Below are positions 21,323-64,000 of a stretch of DNA of 64,000 nt, piece by piece; position 1 is the first letter of the stretch; the number at the start of each line of letters is the position of its first letter. The notes below the pieces were generated by a model that saw nothing but the letters and a program-made list of their open reading frames with translations, had not been told where the DNA came from and did no database searches. Source of the stretch: Eledone cirrhosa (lineage: Eukaryota); the NCBI GenBank assembly GCA_964016885.1, contig OZ024754.1, positions 9,362,001 to 9,426,000 on the forward strand. Reading direction: 5' to 3'. A program made the position numbers and the translations under genes.

Positions 21323-21906
21323 TCATCATCATCATCATTTCATTTTATGTCCGCTTTTTCCCTGCTTGCAAGGGTGGGACGGGAACTGATTCTGGCTTGA
21401 TTTCTACAGCTGGATGCCCTTCCTAACACCAACCTCATTTACAGTGAGTGATGGGTGCCTTTTTTGCCGTGGCACCTACACGTCCACTTTACAGTGTGGG
21501 CTGGGTGCCTTTTTGCCGTGGCACCTACACGTCCACTTTACAGTGTGGGCTGGGTGCCTTTTTGCCGTGGCACCTACACGTCCACTTTACAGTGTGGGCT
21601 GGGTGCTTTTTTGCTGTGGCACCTCCACGGCCACTTTACAGTGTGGGCTGGGTGCCTTTTTGCCGTGGCACCTACACGTCCACTTTACAGTGTGGGCTGG
21701 GTGCTTTTTTGCTGTGGCACCTCCACGACCACTTTGCAGTGGAATGATAGGGACCCCAGTCCCTATCATCTCATTTCTACAGCTGAGTAAACTGGAGCAA
21801 TGTGAAATAAAGTGTCTTGTTCAAGGAAACAACACATCACCCGGTCTGAGAATTGAACTCACAACCTTTCGATTGCAAGGCTCTAACCACTAAGCCATGT
21901 GCTTCC
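21323..21906 (-). mobile_element. Full-length SINE family A with five extra 49-bp internal units
   Basis: Reverse complement of 21922-22277; GGCACC recurs at 21471, 21520, 21569, 21618, 21667 and 21716. Confidence 0.9.
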
Positions 21907-21921
21907 AATATATGTATATAA

Positions 21922-22277
21922 GGAGGTACATGGCTTAGTGGTTAGAGCATTGGCCTTGCAATCGAAAGTTTGTGAGTTCAATTCTCAGCCCGGGTGATGT
22001 GTTGTTTCCTTGAGCAAGACACTTTATTTCACATTGCTCCAGTTTACTCAGCTGTAGAAATTAGATGATAGGGACTGGGGTCCATATCATTCCACTGCAA
22101 AGTGGTCGTGGAGGTGCCACGGCAAACAAGCACCCAGCACTCACTGTAAATGAGGTTGGTGTTAGGAAGGGCATCCAGCTGTAGAAATCAAGCCAGAATC
22201 AGTTCCCGTCCCACCCTTGCAAGCAGGGAAAAAGCGGACGTAAAACGATGATGATGATGATGATGATGATGATTGAT
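21922..22277 (+). mobile_element. Full-length SINE family A (tRNA head, CORE-like domain, RTE-like tail, (GAT)n)
   Basis: A box TGGCTTAGTGG, B box GTTCAATTC, TTGAGCAAGACACTT, tail CCCGTCCCACCCTTGCAAGCAGGGAAAAAGCGGACGTAAAACGATGATG. Confidence 0.9.
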
Positions 22278-27974: not shown

Positions 27975-28018
<44 letters not shown>

Positions 28019-28164
28019 TTTGTTAGAAGTGCCTACTGACTGTAGGTTTCGCTTTGTACTTAGGCAAGGTGGGTCTTCTGTATGACTGTGTAGCGCCAAA
28101 TATATATATATATATATGTATACAATATATTAACAAATGGAAACTATATTTATAAAACCATATT

Positions 28165-28230
28165 TATTTCATTATACATATTTCAAGGGCCACCAGAGCA
28201 AACTATGGTGCATTTTCATCAGATGAAATA
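28165..28230 (-). ncRNA. Type I minimal hammerhead ribozyme motif
   Basis: Minus strand: UAUUUCAU-CUGAUGA-AAUGCACCAUAGUUUGCUCUGGUGGCCCUU-GAAA-UAUGUAUA-AUGAAAUA; perfect 8-bp stem I. Confidence 0.75.
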
Positions 28231-28324
28231 TAATATAGGTTAGTTTTATAAATAAATATTGACATACCCTTAAAAAATGCAACCATTCTGGTTGGAATCT
28301 TCTGGATAAAACTAACCTATAATA

Positions 28325-28390
28325 TATTTTATCTGATGAAAGTGCACCATAGTTTGCTCTGGTGGCCCTTGAAATATGTATAATGAAATA
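28325..28390 (+). ncRNA. Type I minimal hammerhead ribozyme motif
   Basis: UAUUUUAU-CUGAUGA(28333-39)-stem II-GAAA(28371-74)-UAUGUAUA-AUGAAAUA; stem I has one G-U pair. Confidence 0.75.
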
Positions 28391-28666
28391 AATATGGTTT
28401 TATAAATATAGTTTCCATTTGTTAATATATTGTATATATATATATATGTATATATATATATAAGCAAAGAGATATTTAATTTGTTGGTTATTCAACAAAT
28501 TTATTTATAACAGATTCAAAGCACTCTACAAGGTTCTTCTGGAGTATAATATCAATCATATTAATAAATGGAAACTATATTTATAAAACCATATTTATTC
28601 TATTATAAGAATGGTTGCATTTTTTAAGGGTATGTCAATATTTATTTATAAAACTAACCTATATTA

Positions 28667-28732
28667 TATTTTATCTGATGAAAGTGCACCATAGTTTGCT
28701 CTGGTGGCCCTTGAAATATGTATAATGAAATA
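28667..28732 (+). ncRNA. Type I minimal hammerhead ribozyme motif
   Basis: Identical to 28325-28390. Confidence 0.75.
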
Positions 28733-28861
28733 AATATGGTTTTATAAATATAGTTTCCATTTGTTAATATATTGTATATTTACTCCAATAATTTGTTGAG
28801 TGCTTTATATCAATTATAAAAATATTTTTAGCTTGTTGTATCCCAACAAATTAAATATAAC

Positions 28862-28894
<33 letters not shown>

Positions 28895-28896
<2 letters not shown>

Positions 28897-29085
28897 GGAA
28901 CAAGTAAGACCCCGACGGCTGAGCTCAAGCCGTTTCGACGGCTAATTCGCTGTCGAATTAGCCGTCGAAACGGCTTGAGCTCAGCCGTCGGGGTCTTACT
29001 TGTTCCTATTACCCACTCTACTACCCTAAGTATTGAGTACTTTGGTGCGTTATGGTCCACCTGGTTCCTTACCACATTTCCTTCG

Positions 29086-29121
<36 letters not shown>

Positions 29122-50627: not shown

Positions 50628-51246
50628 ACTCAGTAATAGAGAAGACCCGCCTTACCTAAATACAAAGTAAAAACCTACTACAGTCAGTAGGCATCTCTAT
50701 CAAAACACACCCCCGTCCCACCACCTCCACCCCACCCACACCGCCCCTTTCAATGTAAAGTTATGTTGGTCCCACAACATCCAGGCCGAAACAAATGAGA
50801 TCGTGTAGGTGTCACGACAAAAAACACAGTCCACGCTGTAAATGTGGCCGTGTAGGCAACACGGTAAAAACCTCCCAGCCCCACACTGTAAATGTGGTTG
50901 GTGTTAGGAAGGGCATCCAGCTGTAGAAAACCCGCCAGACAGTCCACGCTGTAATGTGGCCGTGTAGGCAACACGGTAAAAACCTCCCAGCCCCACACTG
51001 TAAATGTGGTTGGTGTTAGGAAGGGCATCCAACTGTAGAAAACCCGCCAGACAGTCCTATGCGAGCAAGACAACCACTCTTGCCTCAAGTGGGAAAACCC
51101 CCGTCCAAACCCATGCAAGCGTGGAACACGGAACACGGACGCTAAACCTGATGATGATGATGATGATGATATATATATATAGTGGTAGAACACTGGAAGG
51201 TAATATCCGTAGTAGTAGAGCACTCAGTTCATGGGACGAGTTAGGT

Positions 51247-51378
51247 AGAAGTGGTTACACAACAGTTAGTTCATCATATATCGAGAACAATTGTTTCACC
51301 TTAGCGGATCCTCAGCTGAAGATCCGCTAAAGTGAAGCAATTGTTTTCGGTATGGTGAACTAACTATAACTAACCACT

Positions 51379-51381
<3 letters not shown>
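51247..51381. repeat. About 135-bp imperfect palindrome with back-to-back hammerhead-like cores
   Basis: Centre CAGCTG at 51313-18; the minus arm reads CUGAGGA-UCCGCUAAGGU-GAAA-CAAUUGUU. Confidence 0.7.
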
Positions 51382-51424
<43 letters not shown>

Positions 51425-51745: not shown

Positions 51746-52249
51746 TAAAATTAGATCAAAAATGTTTTAACACTACAAGCGAAGTCATTCTTTTCCTTTT
51801 TTTCAAATATACCTAACTGTACCAAGGATCTCATACATTTTCCAATATATATATATATATATATATATAGTAATAATAATTATGGGAACCAAAATCCAAA
51901 GAGTGCTCGATATAGATTGTACATATATGTATAATAAAAAATTATATATAAACCCGTACACCAAATATTTATTATTAGTACAGATTAAAGTTTAAGCAAA
52001 AAATTTCTGCTTTCACCCTATTACAGGATCTTCTGAAATAATTAAATGTTCTCTAAATATACATATATAATATGAATAAAGTTCTGGTTATCCTGTTTTG
52101 ATTATAGGGAATGCTATCTCAAGTTTGGGAGGTTAAAATCAGTAGCAATTGATTGAGTATTTCTGTCCTCACATTCAAACTTACATACACAAGTCTCCTA
52201 TCACATACAATATGGATAACACACACAAACTTTGATGCTTTACATAATA

Positions 52250-52782
52250 TACAGGGTGGTCCGAAAGTCTTGTCATCGCCTACCAAAAAGAAAATTATAT
52301 TATTATGATTAGAAAATTATATTATTATTATTATAAGGGCGGTGGATTGGCAGTATCGGTAGAGGGTCGGACGCCATGCTTTCCAGCATAGTTACGTCCC
52401 TTTACGATCTGAGTTCAAATCTCGCCGAGGTTGACTTGCCTTTCATCCTTATGGGGTCAATAAAATAAAGTACCAGTAATGCACTGGGTAATTGCTGGCC
52501 TTGTGCCTAAAGTAGAAATTATTATTATTATCATATATTATAATTAATTGTTTCTACTTTAGGCACAAGGCCAGCAATTATCCAGTACATTACTGGTACT
52601 TTATTTTATCGACCCCGTAAGGATGAAAAGCAAAGTTAACCTCGGCGGGATTTGAACTCAGACTGTAAAGGGACGTAACTATGCTAGAAAGCATGGCGTC
52701 CAACCCTACTATTAAAACAAAAAATAATGAAAGTTAAAACAATGTGTAACAAGGGGTGACAAGACTTTCGGACCACCCTGTA
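52250..52782. mobile_element. Tc1/mariner-type MITE containing two inverted family B SINEs
   Basis: TA-CAGGGTGGTCCGAAAGTCTTGTCA ... TGACAAGACTTTCGGACCACCCTG-TA; SINEs at about 52337-52520 (plus) and 52545-52710 (minus). Confidence 0.88.
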
Positions 52783-59519: not shown

Positions 59520-59789
59520 TAATAGGGTGTATAAACCCCAGAATGGAAGAAAATGACTATTCATCAGACTGTAGCCCTGCAGTCTAGGACACAGGTAGCT
59601 CTTTTAATTACAGGTACAATTCATTTTTGCCAGTTGAGTGAACTGGAGCAATGTGAAATAAAGTGCCTTGCTCAAGGACAATGCGTGCTGCTGGGAATCG
59701 AACTCACAACCTTACGATCGTGAGCTGAATTCCCTAACTACAAAGTCACGCACTTTCACATGTGAAAAGGGGAACTATAGAGACACATA

Positions 59790-60465
59790 AATAATTGTTT
59801 CGACTTTTGGCACAAGGCCAGCAATTACACAATGCATTACTGGTACTTTATTTTATCGACCCCATAAGGATGAAAGGCAAAGTTAACCTCGGCGGGATTT
59901 GAACTCAGATCATACAGGGAGGTAACTCTATGCTTCAAAACATGGCGTCCGACCCTCTACCGATACTGCCAATCCACTGCCTTTCGAGACACATAAATAA
60001 TTGTTTCTACTTTTTGGCACAAGGCCAGCAATTACCCAGTACATTACTGGTACTTTATTTTATCGACCCCGTAAGGATGAAAGGCAAAGTTAACCTCGGC
60101 GGGATTTGAACTCAGAATGGCAAGGGCCGTAACTCTATGCGTCAAAGCATGGCGTCCGACCCTCTACCGATACTGCCAATCCAATGCCTTTAGAGACACA
60201 TAAATAATGATTTCTAGTATAGGCACTAGTACTGGTACTTTATTAGTAATGCACCTAGTATAGGCACAAGGGCAGTAATTTGGGAGGAGGTGAAAGTTGA
60301 TTAAATCAACCCCAGTATGTTACTGGTACTTTATTTTATCGACCCTGTAAGGATGAAAGGCAAAGTTAACCTCAGCAGGATTTAAACTCAGACTGTAAAG
60401 AGCCGTAACTCTATGCTGCAAAGCATGGTGTCTGGCTCTACCAATACTGCTAATCCACCGCGCCC
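59790..60465 (-). mobile_element. Three head-to-tail family B SINEs
   Basis: Copies at about 59790-59982, 59995-60190 and 60260-60465, delimited by GAGACACATAAATAAT. Confidence 0.85.
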
Positions 60466-61653
60466 CCTTATAGAGACACAAATTATGAGAACAATTATAT
60501 ATTTGGTTTCATTTTGTAAAGACAAAAATTAAAACTACAGGCAATGTTAAATCTTTTCACAAAGAAGTTAATATCATGTTTCTTGCCAAATTGACATTAT
60601 GGCGGCCATTATTTGCTTCATTATGCCTTTGTTTGTTTGCACGTATGTTTATATCAACATACATATACATAAATATAGGTAGAGAGATAAAGAAATATAT
60701 ACATATAGATAGGCTAATATACATAATTAGAGGAAGCTAGATAGATAAGCAGATATTAGTTTAGTTTTAGTATGTAATACATGAAATGCTGTATGTTTTA
60801 GAGATATAAAAATGATTTATCCATGAGCGTAACTGCTATAGACGAAAATAGTTGCAATAGTGTTATGTAAATGTACATGTAGTTACATATTAAAATATAC
60901 TGGGGAACAACACAATCTATTCTATAATATTATAAATAAAACTATTTATGGTTCCAAACATTCATTAGTGTTTTGTATGTCTAGTTAACTCATCAGTAGA
61001 GAAGAAATGATAGATGGCATTCATATGACTACTATCTATAGGAGTATTTAATAAAATATTAAGGTGCAGGACTAAGTAGTTAAGGGGTTGGGTTCATTAT
61101 TCTAAGTTCACGAGATCAATTCCCAGAAAAGCCAGCACATTGTTTCCTTGAGCAAGACACTTTATTTCACATTGCTACAGTTCACTCAGCTGGCAAAAAT
61201 GAATTTGTACCTGTAATTCAACTGGCCAGTTTTGTCACACATTGTGTCACACTGATTCATCATCATCATCATCATCATCACTGTTTTACGTCCATTCTTC
61301 CACACTAGCATGGGTTAGACGGGTTGTCCTGTTGTGGACAATGCCAGGTCAGGTGACCATGTCTCGCTCGTACAGAACTGTTTCTGGCAGGTTTTCTATG
61401 GCTGGATGCCCTTCCTAACACCAACCACATTTACAGTGTGGACTGGGAGCCTTTTAACCGTGTCTCCTACACGACCACTTTACAGTGAGGGCTGGGTGCT
61501 TTTTGTCGTGTCTCCCGACCAATCTTGCCTCAAGTAGGACAAAACCGTCCAACCCATGCTAGCAGCATGGATGATGGACGTTAAACAATGATAATGATGT
61601 TGATGATAAGCTAGGATCAATATATGTATATATTATATATATGTATATATATA

Positions 61654-61844
61654 TAACAAAGGAAATGTGGTAAGGAACCAGGTGGACCATAACGCACCAA
61701 AGTACTCAATACTTGGGGTAGTAGAGTGGGTAATAGGAACCAGTAAGACCCCGACAGCTGAGCTCAAGCCGTTTCGACGGCTAATTCAGTCCAGAATTAG
61801 CCGTCGAAACGGCTTGAGCTCAGCTGTCGGGGTCTTACTGGTTC

Positions 61845-61847
<3 letters not shown>
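61654..61847. mobile_element. Second copy of the 28.9-kb GC-rich palindromic element
   Basis: Perfect palindrome at about 61735-61847, plus the same flank as 29007-29090. Confidence 0.8.
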
Positions 61848-63390: not shown

Positions 63391-63444
<54 letters not shown>

Positions 63445-63589
63445 TTTGAGTATATGTTGGTTGTATACCAACACCTCAGTATGCAGATTGGAGCACTCGA
63501 CGAAGTGCGCAGGTTGGTTTGGTTACTCCGGAGTAATGTAAAATAAAATAAAATAAATAAGTCAAATGTTTAAAATTTAGCTTCGTTTA

Positions 63590-63950
63590 TTACTGCTATA
63601 TATATTTCGGTGACAGCCATCTTTGGCTGTGACCTCTTTAGGCAGTCCGAATTAGTGTGGTAGAGACGAGTACACATGTTGTTGAGGTGTTTAACTTTGT
63701 CAATACTCTGATATGCCCAGTTCCTGGTTGGGTTGTTGTTTCACTGAGGAACTGGAATCATATCTCTTCCAATCATATATGATTCCAGTTCCTCAGTGAA
63801 ACAACAACCCAACAAGGAACTGGGCATATCAGAGTATTGACAAAGTTAAACACCTCAACAACATATGTACTTGTCTATACCACATTAATTCGGACTGCCT
63901 GAAGAGGTCACAGCCAAAGATGGCTGTCACCGAAATATATATAGCAGTAA
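63590..63950. repeat. About 360-bp inverted repeat (arms about 174 bp, loop about 13 nt); PLE-like inverted pseudo-LTR
   Basis: Arms are reverse complements with few mismatches; each outer end carries a hammerhead motif. Confidence 0.9.
63894..63948 (+). ncRNA. Type I minimal hammerhead ribozyme motif
   Basis: ACUGC-CUGAAGA-GGUCACAGCCA(AAGA)UGGCUGUCACC-GAAA-UAUAUAUA-GCAGU: 5-bp stem I, 10-bp stem II, palindromic stem III, AUA cleavage triplet. Confidence 0.8.
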
Positions 63951-64000
63951 AATATAGTATAAAATATATATATACATACATACATATATATATATACATA

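Follow-up and report, generated by a model that had tools for sequence, protein, structure and literature searches.

Four truncated, hammerhead-bearing arms in Eledone cirrhosa are likely 3′ ends of Penelope-like elements

Four truncated arms, all from a single high-copy repeat family, make up the hammerhead cluster described here; they form two head-to-head pairs set between (TA)n tracts and are likely to be the 3′ ends (pseudo-LTR region) of Penelope-like elements (PLEs), probably of the Hydra clade. We put the probability of this reading, including the insertion history proposed below, at roughly 0.8. Assignment to the Hydra clade is the favoured one, held with less confidence, and draws on non-coding features. 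The cluster lies in a stretch of 64,000 nucleotides of contig OZ024754.1 (hereafter the window), which is microsatellite-rich, animal-like DNA with zero N.

Results

The anatomy of the locus is given in Table 1. Arms A and B, and likewise arms D and C, abut by their truncated 5′ ends, and each 3′ end enters a microsatellite. Both A and B end at the position equivalent to 28779, and C and D are about 80 nt longer. Arm D, which lies between B and C and had escaped the initial annotation, matches C at 138 of 157 aligned letters. It starts 4 nt before the cleavage-site position; the idea that this start records a self-cleaved template was rejected, as only one of 16 arms starts there. Arm A has 16 nt more upstream sequence than C, and these match the upstream loose-end consensus of the family (place 28608).

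Table 1. Features of the locus, its neighbour and the dispersed repeats, in window coordinates
Feature	Position	Strand	Basis
(TA)n tract, 3′ end of arm A, likely insertion target	28100..28118	.	sequence
Arm A, 5′-truncated short arm; reaches TA before tail hairpin	28119..28305	-	sequence comparison
Hammerhead A, core from 28222, predicted cut after 28173; stem I C-G, one broken stem II pair	28165..28230	-	
64 nt identical, inverted, to 28608-28671; candidate crossover of inferred inversion	28226..28289	-	first difference at offset 64
Arm B, 5′-truncated short arm, head-to-head with A	28306..28432	+	
Hammerhead B, core 28333, predicted cut after 28382; 8-bp stem I	28325..28390	+	
Central (TA)n tract between B and D 3′ ends	28433..28462	.	
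Arm D, diverged long arm without catalytic core	28463..28607	-	
Tail hairpin of D: ACTC, 3-bp inner stem, 2-nt bulge, GAGTGCT	28520..28545	-	
Arm C, 5′-truncated long arm, head-to-head with D	28608..28860	+	
Hammerhead C, core 28675, predicted cut after 28724, identical to B	28667..28732	+	
Tail hairpin of C: ACTC, 3-bp inner stem, 2-nt bulge, GAGTGCT	28782..28804	+	
(CT)n(TA)n tract, 3′ end of C	28861..28896	.	sequence
Neighbouring four-arm cluster, second family, units U3 and U4	28897..29265	.	
SINE-like repeats (among others)	547-749, 1195-1412, 7922-8270, 21684-22270, 42152-42500, 52316-52707, 59778-60470		

A descriptor scan of the whole window found complete type I hammerheads at four of 26 CTGANGA sites, namely those of arms A, B and C and one at 63899 on the plus strand. 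The initial annotation had reported three near-identical 66-nt motifs, one on the minus strand and two on the plus strand 342 nt apart, and the scan confirmed their coordinates and spacing. All three carry CUGAUGA, GAAA and an AUA cut site, and thus the hammerhead core and a NUH triplet. The motif of A differs at two places from that of B and C. One difference lies in stem I, which has C-G where the other copies have U-G; the earlier statement that this C/U change preserves pairing holds, but the other difference, a G to A at 28213 that breaks one stem II pair, had gone unmentioned. Across copies a single pair of the 8-bp stem I varies as C-G, U-G and U-A. Stem III has 8 nt and no spacer loop, and the 10.1-11.1 pair is A-U. 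Hammerhead B has a long stem II and a near-palindromic A/U stem III. When the copies were folded in isolation, the pairing probability of the stem II core was 0.96-1.0.

The three type I hammerhead motifs are not chance occurrences. Block-wise dinucleotide shuffles of the window gave a mean of 0.06 descriptor matches, and none of 100 reached four. Since the three hammerheads are copies of one repeat they count as one motif in the chance test, and at least one descriptor match was found in two of 2000 shuffles of 28100-28880. Rfam gave no match at the gathering score, and a search of 28000-29400 to E=10 returned 73 matches, none of them to a hammerhead family; these weak matches are to hairpin or miRNA models on palindromes and TA. 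None of the 10 variant places in the 66-nt motif falls on the 13 core places (P=0.09), among the 40 of 116 variant rows listed. The hammerheads here are likely to be inactive or weak. Around hammerhead B, the A/U segments 28306-28312, 28326-28332, 28383-28389 and 28397-28403 could lengthen stem I or fold locally into two hairpins that preclude it, and these alternative pairings may be a folding switch or may be mere AT-richness.

The two plus-strand cores are 342 nt apart, and the interval 28383-28724 is of the same length. Arm B contributes 50 nt of it, the TA tract 30 nt, arm D 145 nt in antisense orientation and arm C 117 nt. Because it is a composite of these pieces the interval is not a repeat unit; B and C have only about 135 nt in common, and TRF found no head-to-tail array of monomers such as retrozymes have. 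In the predicted fold of the construct 28300-28760, stem I of C has a probability of about 0.4, but stem I of B one of 0.00, its 3′ strand being taken up by pairing with antisense D (predicted energy of the B-strand/D duplex, -58.4 kcal/mol). Over 28100-28890 both stems I are predicted at 0.00. A cis double-hammerhead fold is predicted to lie 21.7 kcal/mol above the minimum, or 9.1 kcal/mol if D is kept unpaired; a cross stem III joining B and C would be worth only -2.2 kcal/mol. These predictions do not favour a fold in which both hammerheads would cleave, as in a retrozyme; being equilibrium predictions, they are compatible with some slow co-transcriptional cleavage. The initial annotation had proposed that a plus-strand transcript could dimerise in cis and excise a retrozyme-like RNA of about 342 nt, and this proposal is not supported, given the composite interval and a predicted fold in which antisense D disfavours it. 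Short reads would not be diagnostic of the back-junction of 28724 to 28383 that would mark such an RNA, since ordinary genomic copies match it over 60 nt on its left side and 55 nt on its right.

The family is abundant. In a survey covering 4 of 11 sequencing runs, 28462-28862 was matched by 7,561 contigs of run X1 and by 30,777 of the 12.5 million reads of X9, and by 65 and 18 contigs in the runs of two other organisms. A recurring short end is seen in 70 X1 contigs that depart from the reference at 28779 into TA. At the loose ends the family extends upstream with the extra 16 nt of A, and the loose-end consensus lines have different stem II sequences in which pairing is kept, followed by the same GAAA. 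Listed variants include U-G to U-A in stem I at 28727 and, at 28720, a change of the stem III loop to a perfect palindrome. At 28658 and 28685, arms A, B and C share variants seldom seen in the rest of the family, as would be expected of one donor RNA or of local conversion. No contig among those matched spans 28462-28862, and the order of the arms is known from this assembly alone. Seven X1 ‘skip’ joints that resemble head-to-head junctions elsewhere were left uncounted, as their sides are just 20-25 nt and AT-rich. Seven metagenome matches from a pattern scan were judged to be chance, with no BLAST similarity beyond the pattern; the four of them that were checked lie in long protein ORFs.

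The window holds further units of the same build. Among the 30 segments lying between TA tracts, 7 contain a strong inverted pair, with scores of 68-318 where shuffles reached at most 27, and an eighth unit at 29121-29265, whose arms barely overlap, was added by hand. These eight units fall into five families, and six units (four other families) lie outside the locus described here. Each of the six has one short and one long arm, whereas the two pairs of our locus are short-short (A/B) and long-long (D/C). All 16 arms end in TA-rich tracts, C doing so through a short (CT)n run.

The neighbouring second family has head-to-head pairs with 3′-half hammerheads (GAAA, a 6-bp stem III and a GTC triplet, with no CTGANGA) and tail hairpins in its long arms; another of its units, at 61656-61847, likewise has only the 3′ half of a hammerhead. 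Five arms of this family start roughly 12 nt ahead of GAAA, and in two units the arms are identical, which suggests that the arms arose by fold-back at the stem II hairpin. Unit 63442-63963 contains the 63.9-kb hammerhead; its arms match at 168 of 174 letters, the core of its minus arm is mutated (CTAAAGA) and its long arm has the tail hairpin. Our family had been described as unrelated in sequence to this one, and BLAST indeed gave no match, but the two have in common a GAAA-TATRTA-TA stem III, the head-to-head build and the tail hairpin. In unit 51182-51382, two degenerate hammerheads with U at the cut site, like several Hydra elements, diverge from a CAGCTG centre, and the arms match at 65 of 76 letters. 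Unit 39200-39362 is truncated below any hammerhead, and its tail resembles those of C and D.

The tail hairpin consists of ACTC, a stem-loop, a bulge and GAGTRCT, and is present in all eight long arms and in none of the eight short arms. There are 21 GAGTRCT sites in the window, and the eight that have ACTC no more than 40 nt upstream are exactly those of the eight long arms. The hairpin lies 37-57 nt from the arm end, in tails of about 70-160 nt. In seven long arms the inner stem has 3-6 bp and forms only when the bulge is exactly 2 nt, no other bulge size giving any pairs; in the remaining long arm 2 bp form with a bulge of 1 nt. The shuffle chances for the inner stem in four arms were 0.10, 0.03, 0.02 and 0.03. 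A count of hairpin pairs agrees weakly with this, with 89% paired and 6 of 500 shuffles reaching the covariation score, in an analysis of seven of the eight arms in which the rows are related and C and U6 are misaligned. Whole-tail folding energies are unexceptional (z from -2.2 to +0.6), and MAFFT produced no alignment of the full tails across families. Separately, a TA-flanked piece at 51870-51940 has GAGTGCT 35 nt before a TA run and lacks the upstream ACTC; it is possibly a decayed tail.

Pfam found no reverse transcriptase or GIY-YIG domain in any of the 112 frames of the window, as expected of truncated ends, and no convincing endonuclease C-terminus was seen when the sequence upstream of the hammerheads was translated in six frames. 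The link to PLEs is therefore made through non-coding features. Elsewhere in the window, single C2H2 zinc-finger-like frames at 37917-38087(-) and 41275-41445(+) fall just below the Pfam cut-off and sit in a 300-nt inverted duplication of 94% identity. The frame at 43009-43452(-) has a Pfam UTRA match above the cut-off (E 1e-6); it is a 123-nt threefold tandem repeat, and the match is probably spurious. At least two abundant SINE-like dispersed repeat families are also present, several copies lying as inverted neighbours or partial tandems.

Discussion

According to the accessible text of Craig et al. 2021 (PMC8557442), PLE insertions carry at their 5′ end an inverted 5′-truncated copy, only one of their ends has a tail, the mechanism of both being called an open question, and Hydra clade PLEs combine (TA)n targets with hammerheads. 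In our locus 5′-truncated copies carry inverted truncated copies at their 5′ ends, a hammerhead lies in the terminal repeat and insertion is into (TA)n; the optional tail is at one end only in all six other units, and in the locus itself only once the inferred inversion is undone. The truncated inverted arms, one-sided tail, (TA)n tracts and hammerheads support the ‘PLE-like’ part of the earlier reading. Naiads and Neptunes likewise favour microsatellites.

Further likenesses to the Hydra clade, as far as PMC8557442 is accessible, are the (TA)n targets, the type I hammerhead near the 3′ end, the near-palindromic stem III and the use of A, U or C at the cut site; Penelope-13_HM is listed there with an inverted 5′-truncated copy, and the same tail hairpin is visible in the ends of Hydra-2_Amil and Hydra-2_Ajap. 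Unlike the Hydra elements of that source, the locus has no ORF and its 8-nt stem III has no spacer loop; by eye, as for all our comparisons with Hydra consensus sequences, there is no sequence match to Hydra-1_Obim, and the accessible text does not mention the tail hairpin. The tails here are also longer than the 30-40 bp of published PLEs. Compared with the minimal hammerheads of metazoan PLEs, in the accessible part of Cervera and De la Pena 2014 (PMC4209133), the motifs are alike in their large helix II, in a weak palindromic helix III that needs a dimer, in their thousands of dispersed variable copies and in opposite-strand pairs 100-700 bp apart. They differ in a helix I of 8 bp, against 4-5, and in an A-U pair at 10.1-11.1, where G-C is usual. 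Recently active Penelope-like families are recorded in an octopus in the accessible part of PMC13282606.

We propose that the element's GIY-YIG endonuclease would cut a (TA)n tract, and that reverse transcription from the 3′ region of the element RNA would then give a long arm with the tail and a short arm without it. Both arms would stop early and be joined at their 5′ ends, through one cDNA folding back or through two cDNAs being joined. A second insertion of the same family would have entered the neighbouring TA tract. At that stage both pairs would have been short-plus-long; the short-short and long-long pairs of today probably result from an inversion that crossed over within the 64 nt of inverted identity. 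The hammerheads would be passengers in these events; in the parent element they would process a tandem precursor RNA as dimers. A mechanism of this kind is offered by PAc, a Poseidon PLE of Anolis carolinensis, which in the accessible part of Frangieh et al. 2024 (PMC11167929) cleaves AT-rich DNA, extends both strands, has two reverse transcription start sites on the RNA that bound the optional tail, and inserts with its hammerhead dispensable. PAc belongs to a different clade, its tail is 30-40 nt and its start sites lie in an AC-rich stem-loop (PMC11167929, same part).

The same-strand orientation of B and C is best explained by two adjacent insertions, with one inversion probably following; that a single inversion took place in the 64-nt segment is, on the sequence, slightly better than an even bet. 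B differs from C at one place and from its present partner A at three, and an inversion between the 64 identical, inverted letters of A and C would restore a short and a long arm in both pairs, making B the partner of the 3′ part of C. It would also leave D paired with an arm only about 88% alike, which needs two templates or later gene conversion. A PLE origin in which no inversion occurred, the pairs having been made directly by two adjacent insertions or by one complex event with template switches, possibly homing beside an older resident D, seems to us rather unlikely. One donor RNA would fit the rare variants common to A, B and C, the adjacent four-arm cluster is likewise of one family, and the anole PLE targets its own pLTR (accessible part of PMC11167929); furthermore, at a different locus an X9 joint from 28779 to 28549, with one start site, has two short ends that face each other across TA. 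Direct assembly would however make our two pairs side-by-side exceptions to a rule that is true in all six other units, and would leave the match of B to C, instead of to A, unexplained. With an inversion or with none, two same-strand cores would arise simply from two adjacent pairs.

Readings outside this framework fare worse. A non-autonomous element of its own kind (MITE- or hairpin-like) that moves whole as a palindromic unit is improbable: the second-family units 28897-29086 and 61656-61847 do share a breakpoint and agree to 93% over 245 nt, but their central letters differ, the arms of our family begin at four different places, and the same build in five unrelated families argues for a common insertion mechanism and not a common unit. 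That the four-arm arrangement was produced by assembly or polishing around inverted repeats is highly improbable. Tandem and inverted PLE structures are described as hard to assemble (PMC8557442, accessible text) and no matched contig spans the stretch, yet the window is free of N, the copies have their own differences and distinct junctions, and the repeat family and its ends are present in independent reads. The least probable reading of all is a non-LTR retrozyme, in which the plus-strand double hammerhead of B and C frees a 342-nt RNA that circularises and spreads. Animal retrozymes, in the accessible parts of PMC7229834 and of Li et al. (bioRxiv 2026.07.22.740005), have type I hammerheads, AT-rich sequence, a spacing of a few hundred bases and PLE ancestry, being reported in the latter as derived from PLE pseudo-LTRs; the identical same-strand hammerheads of B and C fall inside the 150-450 nt monomer range of the former, with the low GC expected, and a double-hammerhead fold is geometrically possible. 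Retrozymes are however head-to-tail with a hammerhead per unit (same sources), and the spacer here is a one-off composite that holds a TA tract and an antisense copy. The predicted stem I probabilities and fold cost given above tell against it, and a head-to-tail monomer joint is seen in none of the 15 joints listed, of 34. True retrozyme dimers themselves cleaved in just one of nine tests (bioRxiv 2026.07.22.740005, accessible part).

Returning to the PLE reading, the tail hairpin is possibly the sole detail of the locus that is undescribed; searches of the literature and supplements, with subscription papers and Repbase/Dfam outside their range, found no earlier description of it. Among six new Hydra consensus ends in the accessible supplement of PMC8557442, inspected by eye, the hairpin is clear in two (Hydra-2_Amil and Hydra-2_Ajap), near in one (Crog, one mismatch), partial in one (Amil-1) and absent from two, which end soon after the hammerhead. 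The two clear cases have GCTC and GAGCACT, a compensatory G-C for the A-U first pair (PMC8557442, same material). We tentatively suggest, at somewhat less than even odds, that the tails of (TA)n-targeting PLEs carry a conserved structured signal (RCTC, a 3-6 bp stem-loop, a 2-nt bulge, GAGY and an unpaired RCT), common to five sequence-unrelated families of this genome and to coral and sea-cucumber Hydra elements, which would be recognised by the reverse transcriptase-endonuclease and would set the short and long arms.

The hammerhead cluster itself is ordinary, a set of PLE-derived motifs of the kind found in thousands of copies in animal genomes, and it carries a warning that a spacing of a few hundred bases between two same-strand hammerheads is no proof of a retrozyme. 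What is worth keeping concerns mechanism, namely the strict short-plus-long rule and the conserved tail hairpin across the families of the window, both of which are open to direct test in the existing in vitro PLE assay. If the proposed signal is real, PLE integration would have a definite RNA/DNA recognition element, together with a rule that can be tested.
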